NCBI GenBank assembly: GCA_029979265.1
Contig: JAPOHW010000017.1
Location: forward strand, 3,047-67,046
Length of the DNA stretch: 64,000 bases
Reading direction: 5' to 3'
From: Actinomycetota bacterium
GTDB taxonomy: Bacteria > Actinomycetota > Acidimicrobiia > Acidimicrobiales > Aldehydirespiratoraceae
The first letter of the stretch is position 1. Every line of letters starts with the position of its first letter. Positions 23,146 through 53,802 of this stretch are shown here, piece by piece. The notes beneath the pieces were generated by a model. That model was not told where the DNA came from and searched no databases. It was given only the letters and a program-made list of their open reading frames with translations. Both the position numbers and the translations under genes were made by a program.

Positions 23146-24330
23146 GTGGTGAGCACGGAATTCTCCCTGGAAGCGGTGCGGGCGGCAACCCCCGGAGTGG
23201 ACAACGTCATCCACGTCAACAACGCCGGTGCAGCGCTGCCGCCATCGGTCGTGACCGATACGGTCGTCGATTACCTCCGCCGAGAAGAAGCGATCGGTGG
23301 GTACGAGACGGCCGACGAGCGTCACGACCAACTCGAGGCGGTGTACGACTCGCTCGGTGCGCTGGTCGGCGCCCCCCGCGAGCACATGGCGGTGATCGAG
23401 AACGCCACCCGAGCATGGGACATGGCGATCTACGGGTACCCCTTCGAACGAGGCGATCGAGTCGTCACCTGCCGGGCCGAGTACTCGAGCAACGTCCTTG
23501 CCTTCCTGCAACTCGAACGGCGGTTCGGTATCGAGATGGTGCTGATCGATGACGACGAGCACGGGCAGATCGACCTCGCACACCTGGATACCGAGTTGAC
23601 CCGAGGTGCAGCGATGGTGGCGATGACCCACATCCCGACCAGTGGCGGCCTGATCAATCCGGCCGAAGAGGTCGGCGCGCTGTGTGGCGAGCACGGGGTG
23701 TTCTTCGTGCTGGATGCCTGTCAGTCGGCGGGTCAGGTGCCGCTCGATGTCGGCACCATCGGCTGCGATGTGCTGTCGGGCACCGGTCGCAAGTACCTGC
23801 GTGGTCCGCGAGGCACCGGGTTTCTGTACGTGAGCGAGCGGGCGCTCGACGTGCTCGAACCACCGTTCATCGATCTGCACGCGGCCGACTGGACCCGCGT
23901 CGACGACTACGAATGGCGCCCCGATGCTCGTCGCTTCGAGAACTGGGAGACGTACTACGCAGGCAAAGCCGGTCTCGGCGCTGCGGTGGACTACGCCCTG
24001 GGTGTCGGCATCGAAACCACGGCGGTCCGAATCGCCGATCTCGCAGCGCGATTGCGCAACGGGCTCGGGTCGCTCGATCGGGTTGCCGTGCACGACAAGG
24101 GTGCTCGCCGGGGAGGCATCGTCACGTTCACCGTGGACGGGGTCGATGCGACGTCGGTGCATGCGCAGTTGCTGGCCCGCAGGATCAACACGTCGACGTC
24201 GGGGCCGGACCGTGCCCGTCTCGACCTGGAGCCCCGAGGTCTTCCGACCGTCATCCGGGCCTCCACCCATTACTACAACAGCGAAGACGAGATCGATGCG
24301 GTGATCGCTGCCGTCGACGAGGTGCGTTGA
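23146..24330 (+). CDS. Class-V-fold PLP-dependent enzyme (aminotransferase / desulfurase-like)
   Basis: 394 aa. LDACQSAG and SGTGRKYLRGPRGTGFLY (PLP-Lys context). GTG start lies 32 nt from the divergent M24 gene. Confidence 0.85.
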   Translation: MVSTEFSLEAVRAATPGVDNVIHVNNAGAALPPSVVTDTVVDYLRREEAIGGYETADERHDQLEAVYDSLGALVGAPREHMAVIENATRAWDMAIYGYPFERGDRVVTCRAEYSSNVLAFLQLERRFGIEMVLIDDDEHGQIDLAHLDTELTRGAAMVAMTHIPTSGGLINPAEEVGALCGEHGVFFVLDACQSAGQVPLDVGTIGCDVLSGTGRKYLRGPRGTGFLYVSERALDVLEPPFIDLHAADWTRVDDYEWRPDARRFENWETYYAGKAGLGAAVDYALGVGIETTAVRIADLAARLRNGLGSLDRVAVHDKGARRGGIVTFTVDGVDATSVHAQLLARRINTSTSGPDRARLDLEPRGLPTVIRASTHYYNSEDEIDAVIAAVDEVR

Positions 24331-26033
24331 CGCTCCCGTCCTTTGCCCGCGACGACATCGTCGCTGTCGCCCTCGCGCCGGGGGTCGGGCTCGGTCTCGC
24401 AACCCCGTCTCGGCGGTGGGCGATCCCGGCGACTGACCCGGGGGCGGTCCTTGGGGCGATCCATGGGGATCGCGGACCTCGCTGGGTCTGGTGGGGGAGA
24501 GACGCTGCCGCCGACCCGATCGCGCGCGCCGGGATCCCCGTCGATCGTTGCTGGGATGTCTCGGCCGTGCATCGGCTGCTCGAAGGTGGGTGGCGAGCCC
24601 CGCTCGGTCTCGTGTGGGCGTCCCTGCGCGACCTCGACCTCGACACGCTGCCGCAGATGGGCCAGTTGGGGCTGCTCGACGGGGCCGTCGACGAAGGTGA
24701 CCGTGATCAGCCGCTGCGGCCCGACGGCCATCTGCGTCCCGAGTGGGTCGACGGCGGATTCCGTGAGACTCCCGAGCGACTTGCCGCATGGGCGGCTCTT
24801 GCCCTCGATGCAATGCGCGTACAGGAACGCCGTCTCGCCCGCCGAGCCGAACCGGAGCAGGCGATGGCGACGGCCCGGTCGGAGTCGGCCGCCGAGTTGC
24901 TGTGCGCAGAGATGACCGCGCACGGTCTCCCCGTCGACGAGGCGGAGGCGCGCCGGCTCATCACCGAGGCGGCGGGTGAGCGTCCGTCGAGCGTGGCCGA
25001 CGAAGATGCTCGTCGGGCCGAACGCGACGACCTCGTGCTGCAACACCTCGACTCGCGTCGGCAGGTCAACCTTCGGAATCCGGCGGAGGTCAAGGCCATG
25101 CTCCGTCGCGAGGGGTTCGACCTCCCCGATACCAGGGCATGGCGAATGGAAACCCTGCGTGCGGATGAGCCGCTGATCGACGCACTTCTCACCTGGCGCC
25201 GGGCCGAACGCATCGCCACCACGTACGGGTGGCGTTGGCTCGACGAACACGTCCGTGCGGGCCGACTCCGCGGCGAGTGGGCCGGGTCGGACGGTGCGGC
25301 GGGCCGGATGACGGCGTCGGCCGGCCTCCACAACCTGCCGGCGGTGATGCGACCCCTCGTGGCTGCCGAGCCGGGTCATGCGCTGGTTCGGGCCGATCTC
25401 GGCCAGATCGAGCCGCGAGTGCTTGCTGCCGTGTCGGGCGATGTCGGTCTCATTCGCGCAACCCGCCAGGACGACCTGTACGCACCGGTGGCTAGCGCGC
25501 TTGGCGTCGAACGAGACATGGCCAAGGTGGCGGTGCTCGGGGCCATGTACGGCGCCACCACGGGCGCATCGGCCGGTGCGCTGGCCGGGCTGAGGACGAA
25601 CTATCCGGTTGCGATGGAGTTGCTGGAGCACGCCGCAGAGTTGGGCAGACGTTCACAGGACGTCTTCACCGTCGGCGGGCGCCGGGTGCGAATGGGCGTC
25701 ACCGGCGACACCGACGGCGACATCGACCGAGCGGTGTCGGCCGCCGCGGCACGGGGCCGCTTCGCACGAAATGCCCTCATCCAGGGGGCGGCGGCCGAGT
25801 TCTTCAAGGTCTGGGCGATCACGGTGCGTCGTCGGGGCCGACCGCTCGAGGCGGAGGTCGTTCTGTGCCTCCACGACGAACTCCTCGTGCACGTGCCGGT
25901 TGCGCACGCCGATGCTGCTGCGGTCATGGTCGAGTCGGCCGTCCATGAGGCGGCGCGGTACTGGTCACCGCAACCCGATGTGCGTTTCGTTGCTGATGTG
26001 TGTGTGATCGACCGTTGGTCCGAAGCGAAATGA
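24327..26033 (+). CDS. Family-A DNA polymerase, Klenow-like, with a vestigial 3'-5' exonuclease domain and no 5' nuclease domain
   Basis: Motif A DLGQIEPRVLA, motif B RDMAKVAVLGAMYG and motif C LHDELLV. The TTG at 24327 overlaps the upstream stop (TTGA); the start is uncertain. Confidence 0.75.
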   Translation: MTLPSFARDDIVAVALAPGVGLGLATPSRRWAIPATDPGAVLGAIHGDRGPRWVWWGRDAAADPIARAGIPVDRCWDVSAVHRLLEGGWRAPLGLVWASLRDLDLDTLPQMGQLGLLDGAVDEGDRDQPLRPDGHLRPEWVDGGFRETPERLAAWAALALDAMRVQERRLARRAEPEQAMATARSESAAELLCAEMTAHGLPVDEAEARRLITEAAGERPSSVADEDARRAERDDLVLQHLDSRRQVNLRNPAEVKAMLRREGFDLPDTRAWRMETLRADEPLIDALLTWRRAERIATTYGWRWLDEHVRAGRLRGEWAGSDGAAGRMTASAGLHNLPAVMRPLVAAEPGHALVRADLGQIEPRVLAAVSGDVGLIRATRQDDLYAPVASALGVERDMAKVAVLGAMYGATTGASAGALAGLRTNYPVAMELLEHAAELGRRSQDVFTVGGRRVRMGVTGDTDGDIDRAVSAAAARGRFARNALIQGAAAEFFKVWAITVRRRGRPLEAEVVLCLHDELLVHVPVAHADAAAVMVESAVHEAARYWSPQPDVRFVADVCVIDRWSEAK

Positions 26034-26040
26034 CGCTCGG

Positions 26041-26511
26041 CTACTCGCCGAGGAGCTGTTTGGCTGCGTTGCCCACACGGTTGTTCAGGTTGGCCTGACC
26101 GGCGACGAGGATCAGCTCGGCCAATTCCGCTTCGCCGAAATGAAATCGCAGTTCCTCGATCAGCAGCGGGGGGAGCGCCGAGGAGTCTCCCGACACTGCG
26201 TCGGCCAACTCGAGGACGGCCCGTTCTTCGTCGTCGAAGATGTCGGCCCAGGCGTCGGGTGTCAGCACGGCGTCGATCTTTTCGTCGCTCACTCCTCGTT
26301 GCCTCGCCGAGACAACATGACTGTCGAGTCAAGTGGGGCAGGCGTTCACGACCGAACTGCGAAGGAACACCAGCTCTTTCAACGTCGCAGCAACCGTCCG
26401 GTCGTCGGACCACAGGGCTTTCCCCCACGACTGATACTCGTCTCCCAGTCCCTCGACCCTGAACAGGGTGTAGGCCAGCGGTGACCCGGTGAGCTTCGGT
26501 CGGATGTTCAT
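26041..26511 (-). CDS. AhpD/carboxymuconolactone-decarboxylase-like protein with an in-frame TGA (candidate selenocysteine, CxxU)
   Basis: Two same-frame ORF pieces are joined through the TGA at 26331..26329. Read-through gives 156 aa with VVNAC-P-T-[TGA]-L-D-S-H, matching C-x-x-C-x-x-x-H. ATG at 26511 has GAGGAA upstream. Confidence 0.6.
26298..26316 (-). promoter_or_regulatory. SECIS-like stem-loop 12 nt downstream of the in-frame UGA
   Basis: The mRNA GUUGUCUC-GGC-GAGGCAAC forms 8 bp including one G.U pair, with a G-rich apical loop. Confidence 0.45.
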
Positions 26512-26525
26512 GATCCCAGTATTCC

Positions 26526-27359
26526 TCAGCCGACGGTGATGAGTGCGACTGCCACGCTCGCCAGTGCAAGCCCGACACCCTGCCACCATCGCAGTGGTTG
26601 CCGGTGGACGAGCACGCCGAGCAGAACGGCAACCGCGGGGTACTGCGAACCCATGACACTGACCACGGCGAGATTCCCACCGGCATGGATCGCGAGAACG
26701 AAGAGGATGATTGCCGTGGTGGCGAACATGCCGACGGTGAACGAGGTCCACCGATCTTGTCGGCGTGCCGGGAAGATTCGGGGCCCGGTCAGACGGGTGA
26801 CGGTGACGGCGATCACGAGCCCGACCAGGCGTTGGACGAACAACGGTGAACCGCCGGCGTCGGGGCCGATCTCGGCCAGAAGGATCAGCAAGATGCCGAA
26901 AACGACGCCGGCAACAACGGCAATGCTGACGGTGTACCGATCGTCCTTGCCGTCCTCGGGTTGGTAGGAGGTGAATCCGATGGCGGTCAGACCGAGCGCA
27001 ATCCCTGCCCACACGACAGTGCTCGGTACCGACCCGACGGTGAGGTTCCACAGCACCGGCACCGCTGACATGACGACCCCTGCTGTCGGTGCCGCCGAAC
27101 GGAGGCTCCCGCGCGAGTAGGCGTAGTAGAGGAGCAAGATGCCGACTCCATTGGCTGCGCCGCCCAGCGCGCCGAACACGAGATCTCGCACGCTTGGGTC
27201 GCCGGGCCAGGCGAGTGCGAGCACGGCGGTGAGGATGGTCCCTGACGCGAACATGCCCGACGTGACCTCGTGCGACCGGGTCGACTTGGTGGCACCGGCG
27301 GCCAGGTGTTCACCGGTCCCGATCGAGAACGTGCACAGGAGTGCGAGAAGGAGCGCCAT
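26526..27359 (-). CDS. DMT/EamA-like membrane transporter
   Basis: 277-aa polytopic protein in the same operon as the flanking minus-strand genes (gaps of 14 and 35 nt). Confidence 0.7.
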   Translation of the reverse strand: MALLLALLCTFSIGTGEHLAAGATKSTRSHEVTSGMFASGTILTAVLALAWPGDPSVRDLVFGALGGAANGVGILLLYYAYSRGSLRSAAPTAGVVMSAVPVLWNLTVGSVPSTVVWAGIALGLTAIGFTSYQPEDGKDDRYTVSIAVVAGVVFGILLILLAEIGPDAGGSPLFVQRLVGLVIAVTVTRLTGPRIFPARRQDRWTSFTVGMFATTAIILFVLAIHAGGNLAVVSVMGSQYPAVAVLLGVLVHRQPLRWWQGVGLALASVAVALITVG

Positions 27360-52234: not shown

Positions 52235-53458
52235 TCAGCACGGTGAGTGTTGCGCCGAGCCGTTCGTCCGGAGATACACGCGGCGTTGGACCAGCGCGAG
52301 TGCAATGCCGAGTGTGCCGACGACCATCACCGTCGTGAGCGCTCCCGCATAGCCGAGCGCAGAGTCGGCCACGATGCCGAGCATCAGTGGTCCACTGACG
52401 CCGCCGACCTGGGCGGCCGAGAACCACAGACCATTGGCCAACCCGGCATTTGCGCCGGTTACGTCGTCGGCCTCGAGCAGAGTGACGATCGCAATAGGCA
52501 CGAGCGGTGAGCGAGCCGCGGTGACGAGTGCAGCGGGTCCGATGGTGTCGACGGGCCCAAAGGCGACGGCGGCGATCGCGACCACGGTCACGCCGAGGAG
52601 AGCGATGAACAGCAGATGCATCCGATTCGGCGTTGCCTGGCTCGGCACGGTGGCAGTCAGGACGAGTGCGATCAGGCCCGCGGCGGCGACCCATCCTCCG
52701 GCGCCTGCTGCGGACATGTTGCCGTGCTCCTCGAGCACCGTCGGAAGCCATGTACCGAGCGAGTGCATCACGAAGAACAGCGCAAACGCAGTGACGAGAA
52801 TGAGCCGAACTTCGGTGGAGCGGAGCAATTGCCGGACCGCGTCGCCCCCGGCTGTGTCGTTGTGGACGGTCGACCGTTCGGGTCGCTCGACCCATGCCCA
52901 GATCGCAACCCACCCGAGCGTGCACACCGCTGCGAGTGCCGCTTCGAACACCAACACGCGTCGCCATGTCCCGAGCCACTCCAACAACACCGGGTTGGTG
53001 ATGGCGATGATGATCGTGCCGCCGAGTGCCGGTGCGGCAGCGTAGAGACCGACGCCGAGGCGTCGTTCGCGCTCGTCGGGGAACCAGTTCGCCATGAGCG
53101 CCGGCGCCGATGCCGACACGAGCGGGCCGAACACACCGAAGCACGCAACGGCGAGCCAAAGCGTTCCGACACCGTCCGCCATCGCCCGCAAAAGGAGCGA
53201 GCCGATCACGCTGCACCCACCGAGAAACAGAGACCAGCCGAGGTCGAATCGGTCGATGAACCGTCCGGCGATCGGTGATGTGACGATGTAGACCATCGTC
53301 CACGATCCGAGCGCAAGGCCCATCTGGCCGCGACTCGCCCCCAGGTCCTCGCGGACCAGCGTCAGCATCGGTGCAATCGCAGCGACTCCGATGCCGAAGC
53401 TGAAGTAGACCGCGACCAGCCCGCCGAATACCACCCAACGGTGGCGCGGTGCGGTCAT
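52235..53458 (-). CDS. MFS transporter
   Basis: 407 aa with 12 hydrophobic segments and a GRFIDRF loop motif. Confidence 0.8.
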   Translation of the reverse strand: MTAPRHRWVVFGGLVAVYFSFGIGVAAIAPMLTLVREDLGASRGQMGLALGSWTMVYIVTSPIAGRFIDRFDLGWSLFLGGCSVIGSLLLRAMADGVGTLWLAVACFGVFGPLVSASAPALMANWFPDERERRLGVGLYAAAPALGGTIIIAITNPVLLEWLGTWRRVLVFEAALAAVCTLGWVAIWAWVERPERSTVHNDTAGGDAVRQLLRSTEVRLILVTAFALFFVMHSLGTWLPTVLEEHGNMSAAGAGGWVAAAGLIALVLTATVPSQATPNRMHLLFIALLGVTVVAIAAVAFGPVDTIGPAALVTAARSPLVPIAIVTLLEADDVTGANAGLANGLWFSAAQVGGVSGPLMLGIVADSALGYAGALTTVMVVGTLGIALALVQRRVYLRTNGSAQHSPC

Positions 53459-53534: not shown

Positions 53535-53622
53535 TGGCGGAGGGTGTGGGATTTGAACCCACGGAGGCTTGCACCTCACACGCTTTCCAAGCGTGCCCAT
53601 TCGGCCGCTCTGGCAACCCTCC
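53535..53622 (-). tRNA. tRNA-Ser (anticodon GGA)
   Basis: Class II tRNA with acceptor GGAGGGU/ACCCUCC, anticodon loop UUGGAAA, a long variable arm and T-loop UUCAAAU. CCA is encoded. Confidence 0.9.
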
Positions 53623-53683: not shown

Positions 53684-53802
53684 CGGGGTGTGGTGGCCGG
53701 GTCCTGTGCAACGGGCGCCCGTGAACCGGGTCAGGGCCGGAAGGCAGCAGCTCTCAGCGGAGCCGCCTGTGTGCCGCAGATCGCCTGGCCGCCACTCCCG
53801 GG
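53684..53802 (+). ncRNA. ffs: Signal recognition particle RNA (small bacterial 4.5S type)
   Basis: Domain IV core GGGUCAGGGCCGGAAGGCAGCAGC ... GUGUGCCG closely matches E. coli 4.5S (GGUCAGGUCCGGAAGGAAGCAGCC ... GUGUGCCG). The flanking arms CCGGGGUGUGGUGGCC and GGCCGCCACUCCCGG pair. It sits in the typical position upstream of dnaX. Ends are approximate. Confidence 0.8.

Follow-up and report, generated by a model that had tools for sequence, protein, structure and literature searches.

The locus considered here raises a simple question: does an in-frame TGA codon, lying at the second redox position of a conserved motif, end one protein or encode a residue in the middle of another? The codon occurs in a 64,000-nt window (G+C content 66%) of contig JAPOHW010000017.1, from the Actinomycetota bacterium assembly GCA_029979265.1; the window is the whole stretch of DNA that was analysed, and positions are counted along it. 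Two minus-strand open reading frames (ORFs) in its ORF listing, 26329..27051 and 26041..26292, share one frame. A sequence-only reading of the window had joined them across a TGA and 12 sense codons into a 156-residue protein resembling AhpD and the carboxymuconolactone decarboxylase (CMD) superfamily, and had proposed selenocysteine (Sec) as the residue encoded by the TGA. The comparison with relatives conducted here makes it very probable that UGA61 does encode Sec in this AhpD-like protein, as part of a Cys58-Pro-Thr-Sec61 centre flanked by Glu46 and His65.

A reading frame interrupted by a single TGA

The coordinates of the two fragments proved correct, and the CMD match of the read-through protein spans the junction between them. 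Translation of 26511..26041 yields MNIRPK...VVNACPT-stop-LDSHVV...QLLGE-stop, with the TGA at 26331-26329 as the sole internal stop and the 12 sense codons separating it from a GTG at 26292. The 5' part of ORF 26329..27051 is spurious and overlaps an upstream EamA gene that is read in a different frame. The ATG start of the AhpD-like gene is preceded by a Shine-Dalgarno-like GAGGA (26527-26523) overlapping the stop codon of that EamA gene, and the related loci share an N-terminus of the form M-x-x-R-x-K-L-[ST]-G-x-P-L, starting with the first residue. Around the TGA the frame reads ...LKE46LVFLRSSVVNAC58-P-T-[TGA61]-L-D-S-H65..., a motif of the type E-x11-C-x-x-[C/U]-x3-H, which in the superfamily sits on a two-helix hairpin. 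Downstream of the TGA lies a hairpin resembling a bacterial selenocysteine insertion sequence (SECIS). The features on which the argument turns are the following, with residues aligned to those of Pseudomonas aeruginosa PA0269.

26041..26511, minus strand: candidate AhpD-like/CMD selenoprotein, read-through coding sequence of 156 codons including Sec61, then TAG at 26043-26041
26509..26511, minus strand: ATG start codon, as read from the sequence
26374..26376, minus strand: codon for Glu46, the putative proton-relay glutamate 12 residues ahead of Cys58; invariant in 60/60 sequences and aligned with PA0269 Glu36
26338..26340, minus strand: TGC codon for Cys58, first residue of C-P-T-U; invariant in 60/60 sequences and aligned with PA0269 Cys48
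26329..26331, minus strand: in-frame TGA, proposed Sec61; TGA in 54/55 sequences and aligned with PA0269 Cys51
26317..26319, minus strand: CAT codon for His65 of C-x-x-U-x3-H; His in 59/60 sequences, CAT in 52/54 TGA genes
26298..26316, minus strand: SECIS-like hairpin, with 5' arm GUUGUCUC (26316-26309), loop GGC (26308-26306) and 3' arm GAGGCAAC (26305-26298)

Conservation of the TGA codon

A protein search returned 81 relatives, only six of them full length with a CxxC motif (P0001-P0005 and P0007). Another, P0006, shows 'CPPW' at the motif, one more is an N-terminal piece ending in ...NRCAT, and the remaining 73 are fragments of about 85-103 residues that cover the query in part, mostly its C-terminal 50-60%. 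All ten fragments that were fetched start right past the motif, and we infer the same for the rest of the 73 from their length and coverage. The expectation that ORF callers would miss or split the gene is thus borne out, public records holding fragments, named 'hypothetical protein' or 'alkylhydroperoxidase family enzyme', or nothing at all. The DNA underlying P0006 (L064:1-414) has TGA at the motif column, where the JGI record shows W. That gene record does not translate to the query protein, and its 'W' is an annotation artefact concealing a Sec codon.

A scan of species-representative genomes identified 55 loci, nearly all from metagenome-assembled genomes (MAGs) of Acidimicrobiales; two carry the taxon label Thermomicrobiales and one, which may be mis-binned, Gammaproteobacteria. 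Once a locus covering the C-terminal part only (L058) is left out of the motif-column count, TGA occupies the column in 53 of 54 loci (54/55 with the window) and TGC in one (L017), while TAA and TAG never occur. Protein identity of these relatives is 45-96%, the closest to the window protein being those of L055 (MAG JBMTIM01; 96%) and L004 (81%), and the TGA gene is also carried by a 4.37-Mb chromosome (L016; OZ245048.1) and a 3.6-Mb contig (L018; CBDHHN010000004.1). Residues 1-156 were matched by tblastn in one frame in more than 50 loci, with a single frame over the junction wherever the gene was covered, and neither frameshifts nor extra stops were found in the 54 loci covering the gene. 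Median dN/dS (Nei-Gojobori, all pairs) amounts to 0.22 for the part ahead of the TGA and to 0.24 for the part past it, at a median dS of about 1.3. The likeness of these ratios implies that both halves are translated and constrained.

These data bear directly on the possibility that an AhpD-like gene has been inactivated by a nonsense mutation, in the strain or in the lineage. A pseudogene would be in keeping with a gene that callers split and whose public fragments are named 'hypothetical protein', and with a hairpin that, taken alone on one sequence, is not significant. On the other hand, the TGA has persisted in 54 of 55 sequences despite saturated synonymous sites, purifying selection is equal on both sides of it, the frame is free of further lesions and the catalytic residues are invariant (Glu46, Cys58 and the U/C61 column in 60/60 sequences; His65 in all but one). 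A TGA that has outlasted synonymous-site saturation under such selection excludes a pseudogene in any practical sense, and we regard this explanation as exceedingly improbable. In conjunction with the covarying hairpin described below, the near-universality of the codon likewise excludes a strain-specific nonsense mutation and upholds the earlier choice of a selenoprotein over a pseudogene.

The JGI rendering of the motif codon as W in P0006 might also suggest that UGA has been reassigned to Trp, or to Gly, throughout the organism. However, of the 21 long ORFs with high G+C at third codon positions (GC3) in the window, 15 end in UGA, the adjoining upstream EamA gene among them, and homologues have Cys, rather than Trp or Gly, at the column. 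Since UGA is an ordinary terminator in the genes of the window, a reassigned code is excluded, and its probability is practically nil. Among other TGA-interrupted high-GC3 frames in the window, for which no homologue search was made, 11 TGA sites passed the filter; besides the AhpD-like gene none has a redox-type motif, and some of these sites are merely boundaries between adjacent same-frame genes.

A covarying hairpin downstream of the TGA

The hairpin comprises 8 bp and begins 12 nt past the UGA. Bacterial SECIS elements are usually described as stable stem-loops immediately past the UGA whose small apical loop contains guanosine (PMC1088965). The hairpin agrees with this description both in where it lies and in its shape; a search of the window with Rfam matched no SECIS family. 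Covariation was analysed in an alignment of 53-nt segments from 54 TGA genes, in every one of which the hairpin is kept. Standard pairs are formed by 98.8% of the cells in the 8-bp helix, and compensatory changes affect four of the eight pairs, in 28 cells (U-A/C-G; C-G/U-A with U.G intermediates; U-A/C-G; and C-G/U-A). The observed pairing or covariation score was attained by 0 of 500 column shuffles, and sliding the 3' arm by 1-3 columns, as a control, reduced pairing to 23-74%. RNAalifold recovers the helix independently, adding a U.G pair (columns 18/38), a bulged A and two lower C-G pairs, with a CGGCG loop.

The covariation can be read from codon choice. A Val/Ala alternation (GUC/GCC) covaries with a switch between two Arg codons (AGA/AGG), which is synonymous, GCC never occurring with AGA, and a GUU/GUC alternation covaries with CAA/CGA (Gln/Arg), GUC never occurring with CAA. 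Arg70, at codon +9 past the UGA, is encoded by AGA or AGG in 51/54 TGA genes, as opposed to 7% of Arg codons in the long ORFs of the window, and GUU is used at a Val position in 27/54 TGA genes, versus 7% of Val codons in the same ORFs. His65 is CAU in 52 of the 54, and the last base of this codon can form a U.G pair extending the hairpin. Judging from these codon frequencies, the hairpin arm is built from codons that genes in the window otherwise avoid, and is selected as RNA.

The loci of discrepant taxonomy, L054 and L056 (MAGs labelled Thermomicrobiales, of the Chloroflexota) and L020 (labelled Gammaproteobacteria), carry both the TGA gene and the hairpin. In the two Thermomicrobiales MAGs the stem is a compensated variant, CCGCUUC/GAAGCGG. 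The presence of the TGA gene in these three MAGs reflects either horizontal transfer or mis-binning.

Termination at the UGA could in principle be functional, the AhpD fold being formed jointly by an N-terminal peptide of 60 residues and a C-terminal one initiated on its own. Many C-terminal ORFs of 85-100 residues are indeed present in databases, with a GTG, ATG or TTG start soon past the stop. Yet the stop is invariably TGA and no start codon is conserved, the TGA being followed by CTG or CTC in 43/54 genes. Initiation at the next start in the window, the GTG at 26292, would drop His65 and helix residues; Cys58 would be parted from His65 and the second redox residue would be gone, and a structured hairpin occupies the site needed for a ribosome-binding site. 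We consider this arrangement highly improbable. If the UGA is instead decoded as Sec, the hairpin would act during translation as a bacterial SECIS, recruiting SelB-GTP-Sec-tRNASec to the ribosome such that the UGA would be read through rather than terminate.

Cysteine forms of the protein

The claim that the TGA falls at the second redox position is confirmed by alignment with Cys-form homologues: its column coincides with the second CxxC cysteine in P0001-P0005 and P0007, and with Cys51 of PA0269. In a neighbour-joining tree, computed without bootstrap, the five Acidimicrobiales Cys forms make up one clade nested among Sec forms. DNA was examined for three Cys forms (L017, L061 and L062); in L017 and L062 the pairing of the hairpin is lost, with CGA and CGU as Arg codons. 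The nested position of the Cys clade fits one Sec-to-Cys replacement, after which the SECIS, having become dispensable, decayed.

Selenocysteine machinery

Several observations weigh against the insertion of Sec at UGA61. Folded as a single sequence, the hairpin is unremarkable (z = -0.35 over 71 nt; z = -1.5 over 40 nt, with 18/200 shuffles folding equally well). The location and the 8 bp first proposed for the hairpin hold up, and its significance comes solely from the comparison with relatives. The loop consists of three nucleotides, GGC, or of CGGCG when the closing pair opens, and its recognition by SelB is putative. The TGC form in L061 (L061:2381-2875) retains a perfect hairpin, GUCGUCUC-GGC-GAGACGAC, which means that the hairpin is not strictly tied to TGA; this is explained by a recent Sec-to-Cys change, and L061 looks like such a conversion with a fossil SECIS. 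As for the machinery itself, the 64-kb window yielded no tRNA-Sec with ARAGORN or Rfam, and tblastn with the E. coli proteins SelA, SelB and SelD as queries matched nothing in it. In about 1 Mb of related loci the same tblastn queries found only selD in L042, and no tRNA-Sec was found there by ARAGORN (55 loci) or Rfam (6 loci).

The selD gene of L042 is informative. This Acidimicrobiales MAG carries it on a 303-kb contig (19205-20245, plus strand), 9 kb from its AhpD-like TGA gene. It reads ...FSHGAG-[TGA]-GCKL..., with UGA at the position of E. coli SelD Cys17, a site at which Sec and Cys have long been known to replace each other. A hairpin of 8 bp, AGCUCGCU-CCA-GGCGAGCU, begins 7 nt past this UGA. 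The selD genes of L065, L066 and L067, the last on a 5.4-Mb contig, likewise have TGA at HGAG-U-GCK and an 8-bp hairpin beginning 7 nt past it. Going by these sequences, selD in the four Acidimicrobiales relatives is a selenoprotein gene itself. The best 120 SelD relatives listed range in length from 306-351 residues, with nearly all of them at 316-319, and each spans 86-92% of the query of 346 residues. Their calls begin only some 30 residues into the full-length protein and thus leave out the active-site codon, which is what one would expect were SelD generally a selenoprotein in this lineage. No selA or selB is adjacent to the SelD genes in the neighbourhoods examined, those of L065 and L067. 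In the sister order Actinomarinales, also within the class Acidimicrobiia, all 84 complete genomes of Actinomarina are reported to have selA, selB, selC and selD, the last in Sec form (bioRxiv 10.64898/2026.04.03.716425, a 2026 preprint); we found no literature linking Microthrix with selenocysteine. From these comparisons the Sec trait is well supported for the Acidimicrobiales lineage and, for the genome from which the window derives, is suggested indirectly.

A SECIS-dependent or leaky read-through might nonetheless insert a standard amino acid at UGA61, either Cys, through a tRNASec-like tRNA-Cys, or Trp or Cys, through near-cognate decoding. For some bacteria, tRNASec-like tRNAs that carry Cys have been postulated, and misreading of UGA is possible under selenium limitation; that selA, selB and selC were not seen in the window or the related loci would be in line with either. 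Set against this is the fact that the lineage keeps a selD with UGA at its own catalytic Sec/Cys site, which is sensible only if selenophosphate and Sec-tRNASec are made. Moreover, if Cys were the residue inserted, plain TGC would do, as it does in the Cys clade, and a costly hairpin would not be selected. We therefore deem a standard amino acid at this position quite unlikely, and favour Sec.

Three further observations concern selD and the RNA genes of the window. In L065 (5465-9840) and L067 (4081-7544) a phosphonate-type ABC transporter, composed of a PF12974 binding protein, an ABC ATPase and a double-length BPD_transp_1 permease, is located just upstream of the Sec-form selD; it may serve the uptake of a selenium compound, or its adjacency may be coincidental. 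A 92-nt 'tRNA-Gly(ccc)' reported by ARAGORN at 52357-52448 (minus strand) was taken as a false positive, having no Rfam tRNA match at the gathering threshold. ARAGORN also reported a tRNA-Ser(gga) at 53535-53622 (minus strand), beside the SRP RNA at 53695-53793; this tRNA, too, is absent from the Rfam matches at the gathering threshold.

Protein family, fold and presumed activity

With Cys substituted at position 61, the read-through protein matches Pfam CMD (PF02627) over residues 31-104 (E 3.4e-13; 49.8 bits against a cut-off of 23), and it passes the TIGR00778 ahpD_dom model (42.1 bits; cut-off 27.8). Its score against canonical AhpD (TIGR00777) is 22.3 bits, far under the cut-off of 191.95, and it is therefore not a canonical partner of AhpC. 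It also fails the YciW-related NF053654 (39.5; cut-off 310), NF041238 AhpD_rel_CFYUT (24.3; cut-off 175), the GSU3128 family NF041047 (21.8; cut-off 110) and the peroxidase-related TIGR01926 (30.1; cut-off 81.8). With scores this far below the cut-offs of the NCBIfam models for AhpD-type (seleno)proteins, no existing NCBI naming model captures the clade, in agreement with the name 'hypothetical protein' that its fragments bear in NCBI records.

The closest solved relatives by sequence are PA0269 (2IJC, 2O4D and 7XW1; E about 1e-13) and Atu0492. PA0269 pairs with the AhpD-like protein as Glu36/Glu46, Cys48/Cys58, Tyr50/Thr60, Cys51/Sec61 and His55/His65. These five PA0269 residues constitute a proton relay, whose equivalents in Mycobacterium tuberculosis AhpD are Glu118, Cys130, His132, Cys133 and His137 (PMC3141380). 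An AlphaFold2 model of the Cys homologue P0001, which is 65% identical to the protein, is all-helical, with nine helices (pLDDT 89, pTM 0.85), and its best matches in the PDB are 7XW1, 2IJC and 2O4D (TM 0.71-0.83). As modelled through this homologue, the fold is AhpD-like. By analogy with M. tuberculosis AhpD and PA0269, the protein would be a selenol/thiol oxidoreductase and an AhpD-type selenol/thiol redox cycle its likely chemistry. It might act either as a weak hydroperoxidase or in the re-reduction of a peroxiredoxin-type partner, cycling via a Cys58-Sec61 selenenylsulfide.

Genomic context

Three of the genes adjoining the AhpD-like gene enter into the discussion of its context.

26526..27359, minus strand: EamA-family transporter gene, upstream (Pfam EamA, E 8e-10), ending in TGA
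24342-26033, plus strand: PolA-like polymerase gene, convergent neighbour
23146-24330, plus strand: class-V aminotransferase gene, SufS/EgtE-like

The TGA stop of the EamA gene is followed, after 14 nt, by the ATG of the AhpD-like gene, and the two genes are probably co-transcribed. Five genes around the AhpD-like gene were examined in the window, the other annotated neighbours being a class II aldolase and a fatty-acid hydroxylase, and no peroxiredoxin or ahpC was found among them. The immediate neighbours, including EamA, are common to L055 and L004 only, and elsewhere the context varies, with an acyl-CoA dehydrogenase upstream in L042 and Amidohydro_2 near Cys forms. As it differs among relatives, gene context offers no clue to function.

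Two features of the neighbourhood deserve mention in their own right. The PolA-like gene and the AhpD-like gene, whose stop lies at 26043-26041, end just 7 nt apart, which leaves no space for an intergenic terminator. The class-V aminotransferase, at a distance of 1.7 kb from the AhpD-like gene, belongs to the cysteine desulfurase, EgtE or selenocysteine-lyase type and scores under every NCBIfam equivalog cut-off. Homologues of it occur within 10 kb of the orthologue in six relatives (L055, L004, L057, L038, L022 and L042), and a tie with selenium metabolism is speculative.

Significance

CxxU selenoproteins of the AhpD-like/CMD type entered the literature in 2005 and 2008, and the kind of protein reported here is thus already known. 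It is a possibility, if somewhat short of a probable one, that the genes analysed form a distinct AhpD-like subfamily, ancestrally and still almost obligately Sec-dependent, which is centred on the Acidimicrobiales, with two Thermomicrobiales copies, and falls outside curated selenoprotein models. Such a subfamily would be characterised by a compact SECIS (8-bp stem, GGC/CGGCG loop) built like that of the lineage's selD, and by a single Sec-to-Cys reversal with a fossil SECIS in L061. If true, the shared build of the two SECIS elements would suggest a lineage-specific mode of recognition by SelB.

The main value of the analysis resides in the correction of annotation, and in a tidy example of SECIS covariation and of its decay after Sec-to-Cys replacement. 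Gene calls for the window, and for over 50 MAGs at species level, either give a 'hypothetical protein' of about 85-100 residues without active site or miss the gene altogether. Recognising it gives a redox enzyme back to these genomes and marks abundant uncultured Acidimicrobiales as probable selenium users. It also provides a comparative data set in which a near-universal Sec state, a nested Cys clade with SECIS decay and covariation readable from codon choice are found together. What is known of Sec decoding, or of the function of AhpD-like proteins, is not changed by it.

Comparison with known systems

The hairpin resembles the SECIS of E. coli fdhF in lying within the coding sequence about 11-12 nt past the UGA, and in its short upper stem, small G-containing loop and, possibly, a bulged base. 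It differs from it in its unrelated sequence and in its GGC/CGGCG loop, for which SelB binding is putative. At the protein level, the NCBIfam models NF053654, NF041238, NF041047 and TIGR01926 show weak homology over the CxxC/U helix pair (E 4.5e-10 to 1.5e-4). M. tuberculosis AhpD (1GU9) shares the E-x11-C-x-x-C-x3-H active-site hairpin and the presumed chemistry (PMC3141380), whereas it differs in topology and is a weak match in structure (E about 0.1). PA0269 is the nearest solved protein by both sequence and fold, with aligned relay residues, but has Cys in place of Sec and Tyr50 where the window protein has Thr60, at an identity of about 30-35%.

The closest parallel is provided by selenoproteins of marine metagenomes. 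AhpD-like (COG2128) and CMD-domain (PF02627) selenoproteins with CxxU were described from the Sargasso Sea in 2005 (PMC1088965), 'AhpD-like 1' and 'AhpD-like 2' were among the abundant selenoprotein families of the GOS data set in 2008 (PMC2398784), and AhpD-like selenoproteins are present in current reviews and databases (PMC13188914, PMC13326102). The Acidimicrobiales clade, which was set beside the 2005 and 2008 families by description only, may already be catalogued among them. It has in common with them the PF02627/COG2128 superfamily, a CxxU motif with Sec in the second position, the existence of Cys homologues and a stem-loop with a small G-containing loop near the UGA. In contrast, the GOS families comprise more Cys than Sec forms (PMC2398784), whereas the Acidimicrobiales clade is nearly all Sec.

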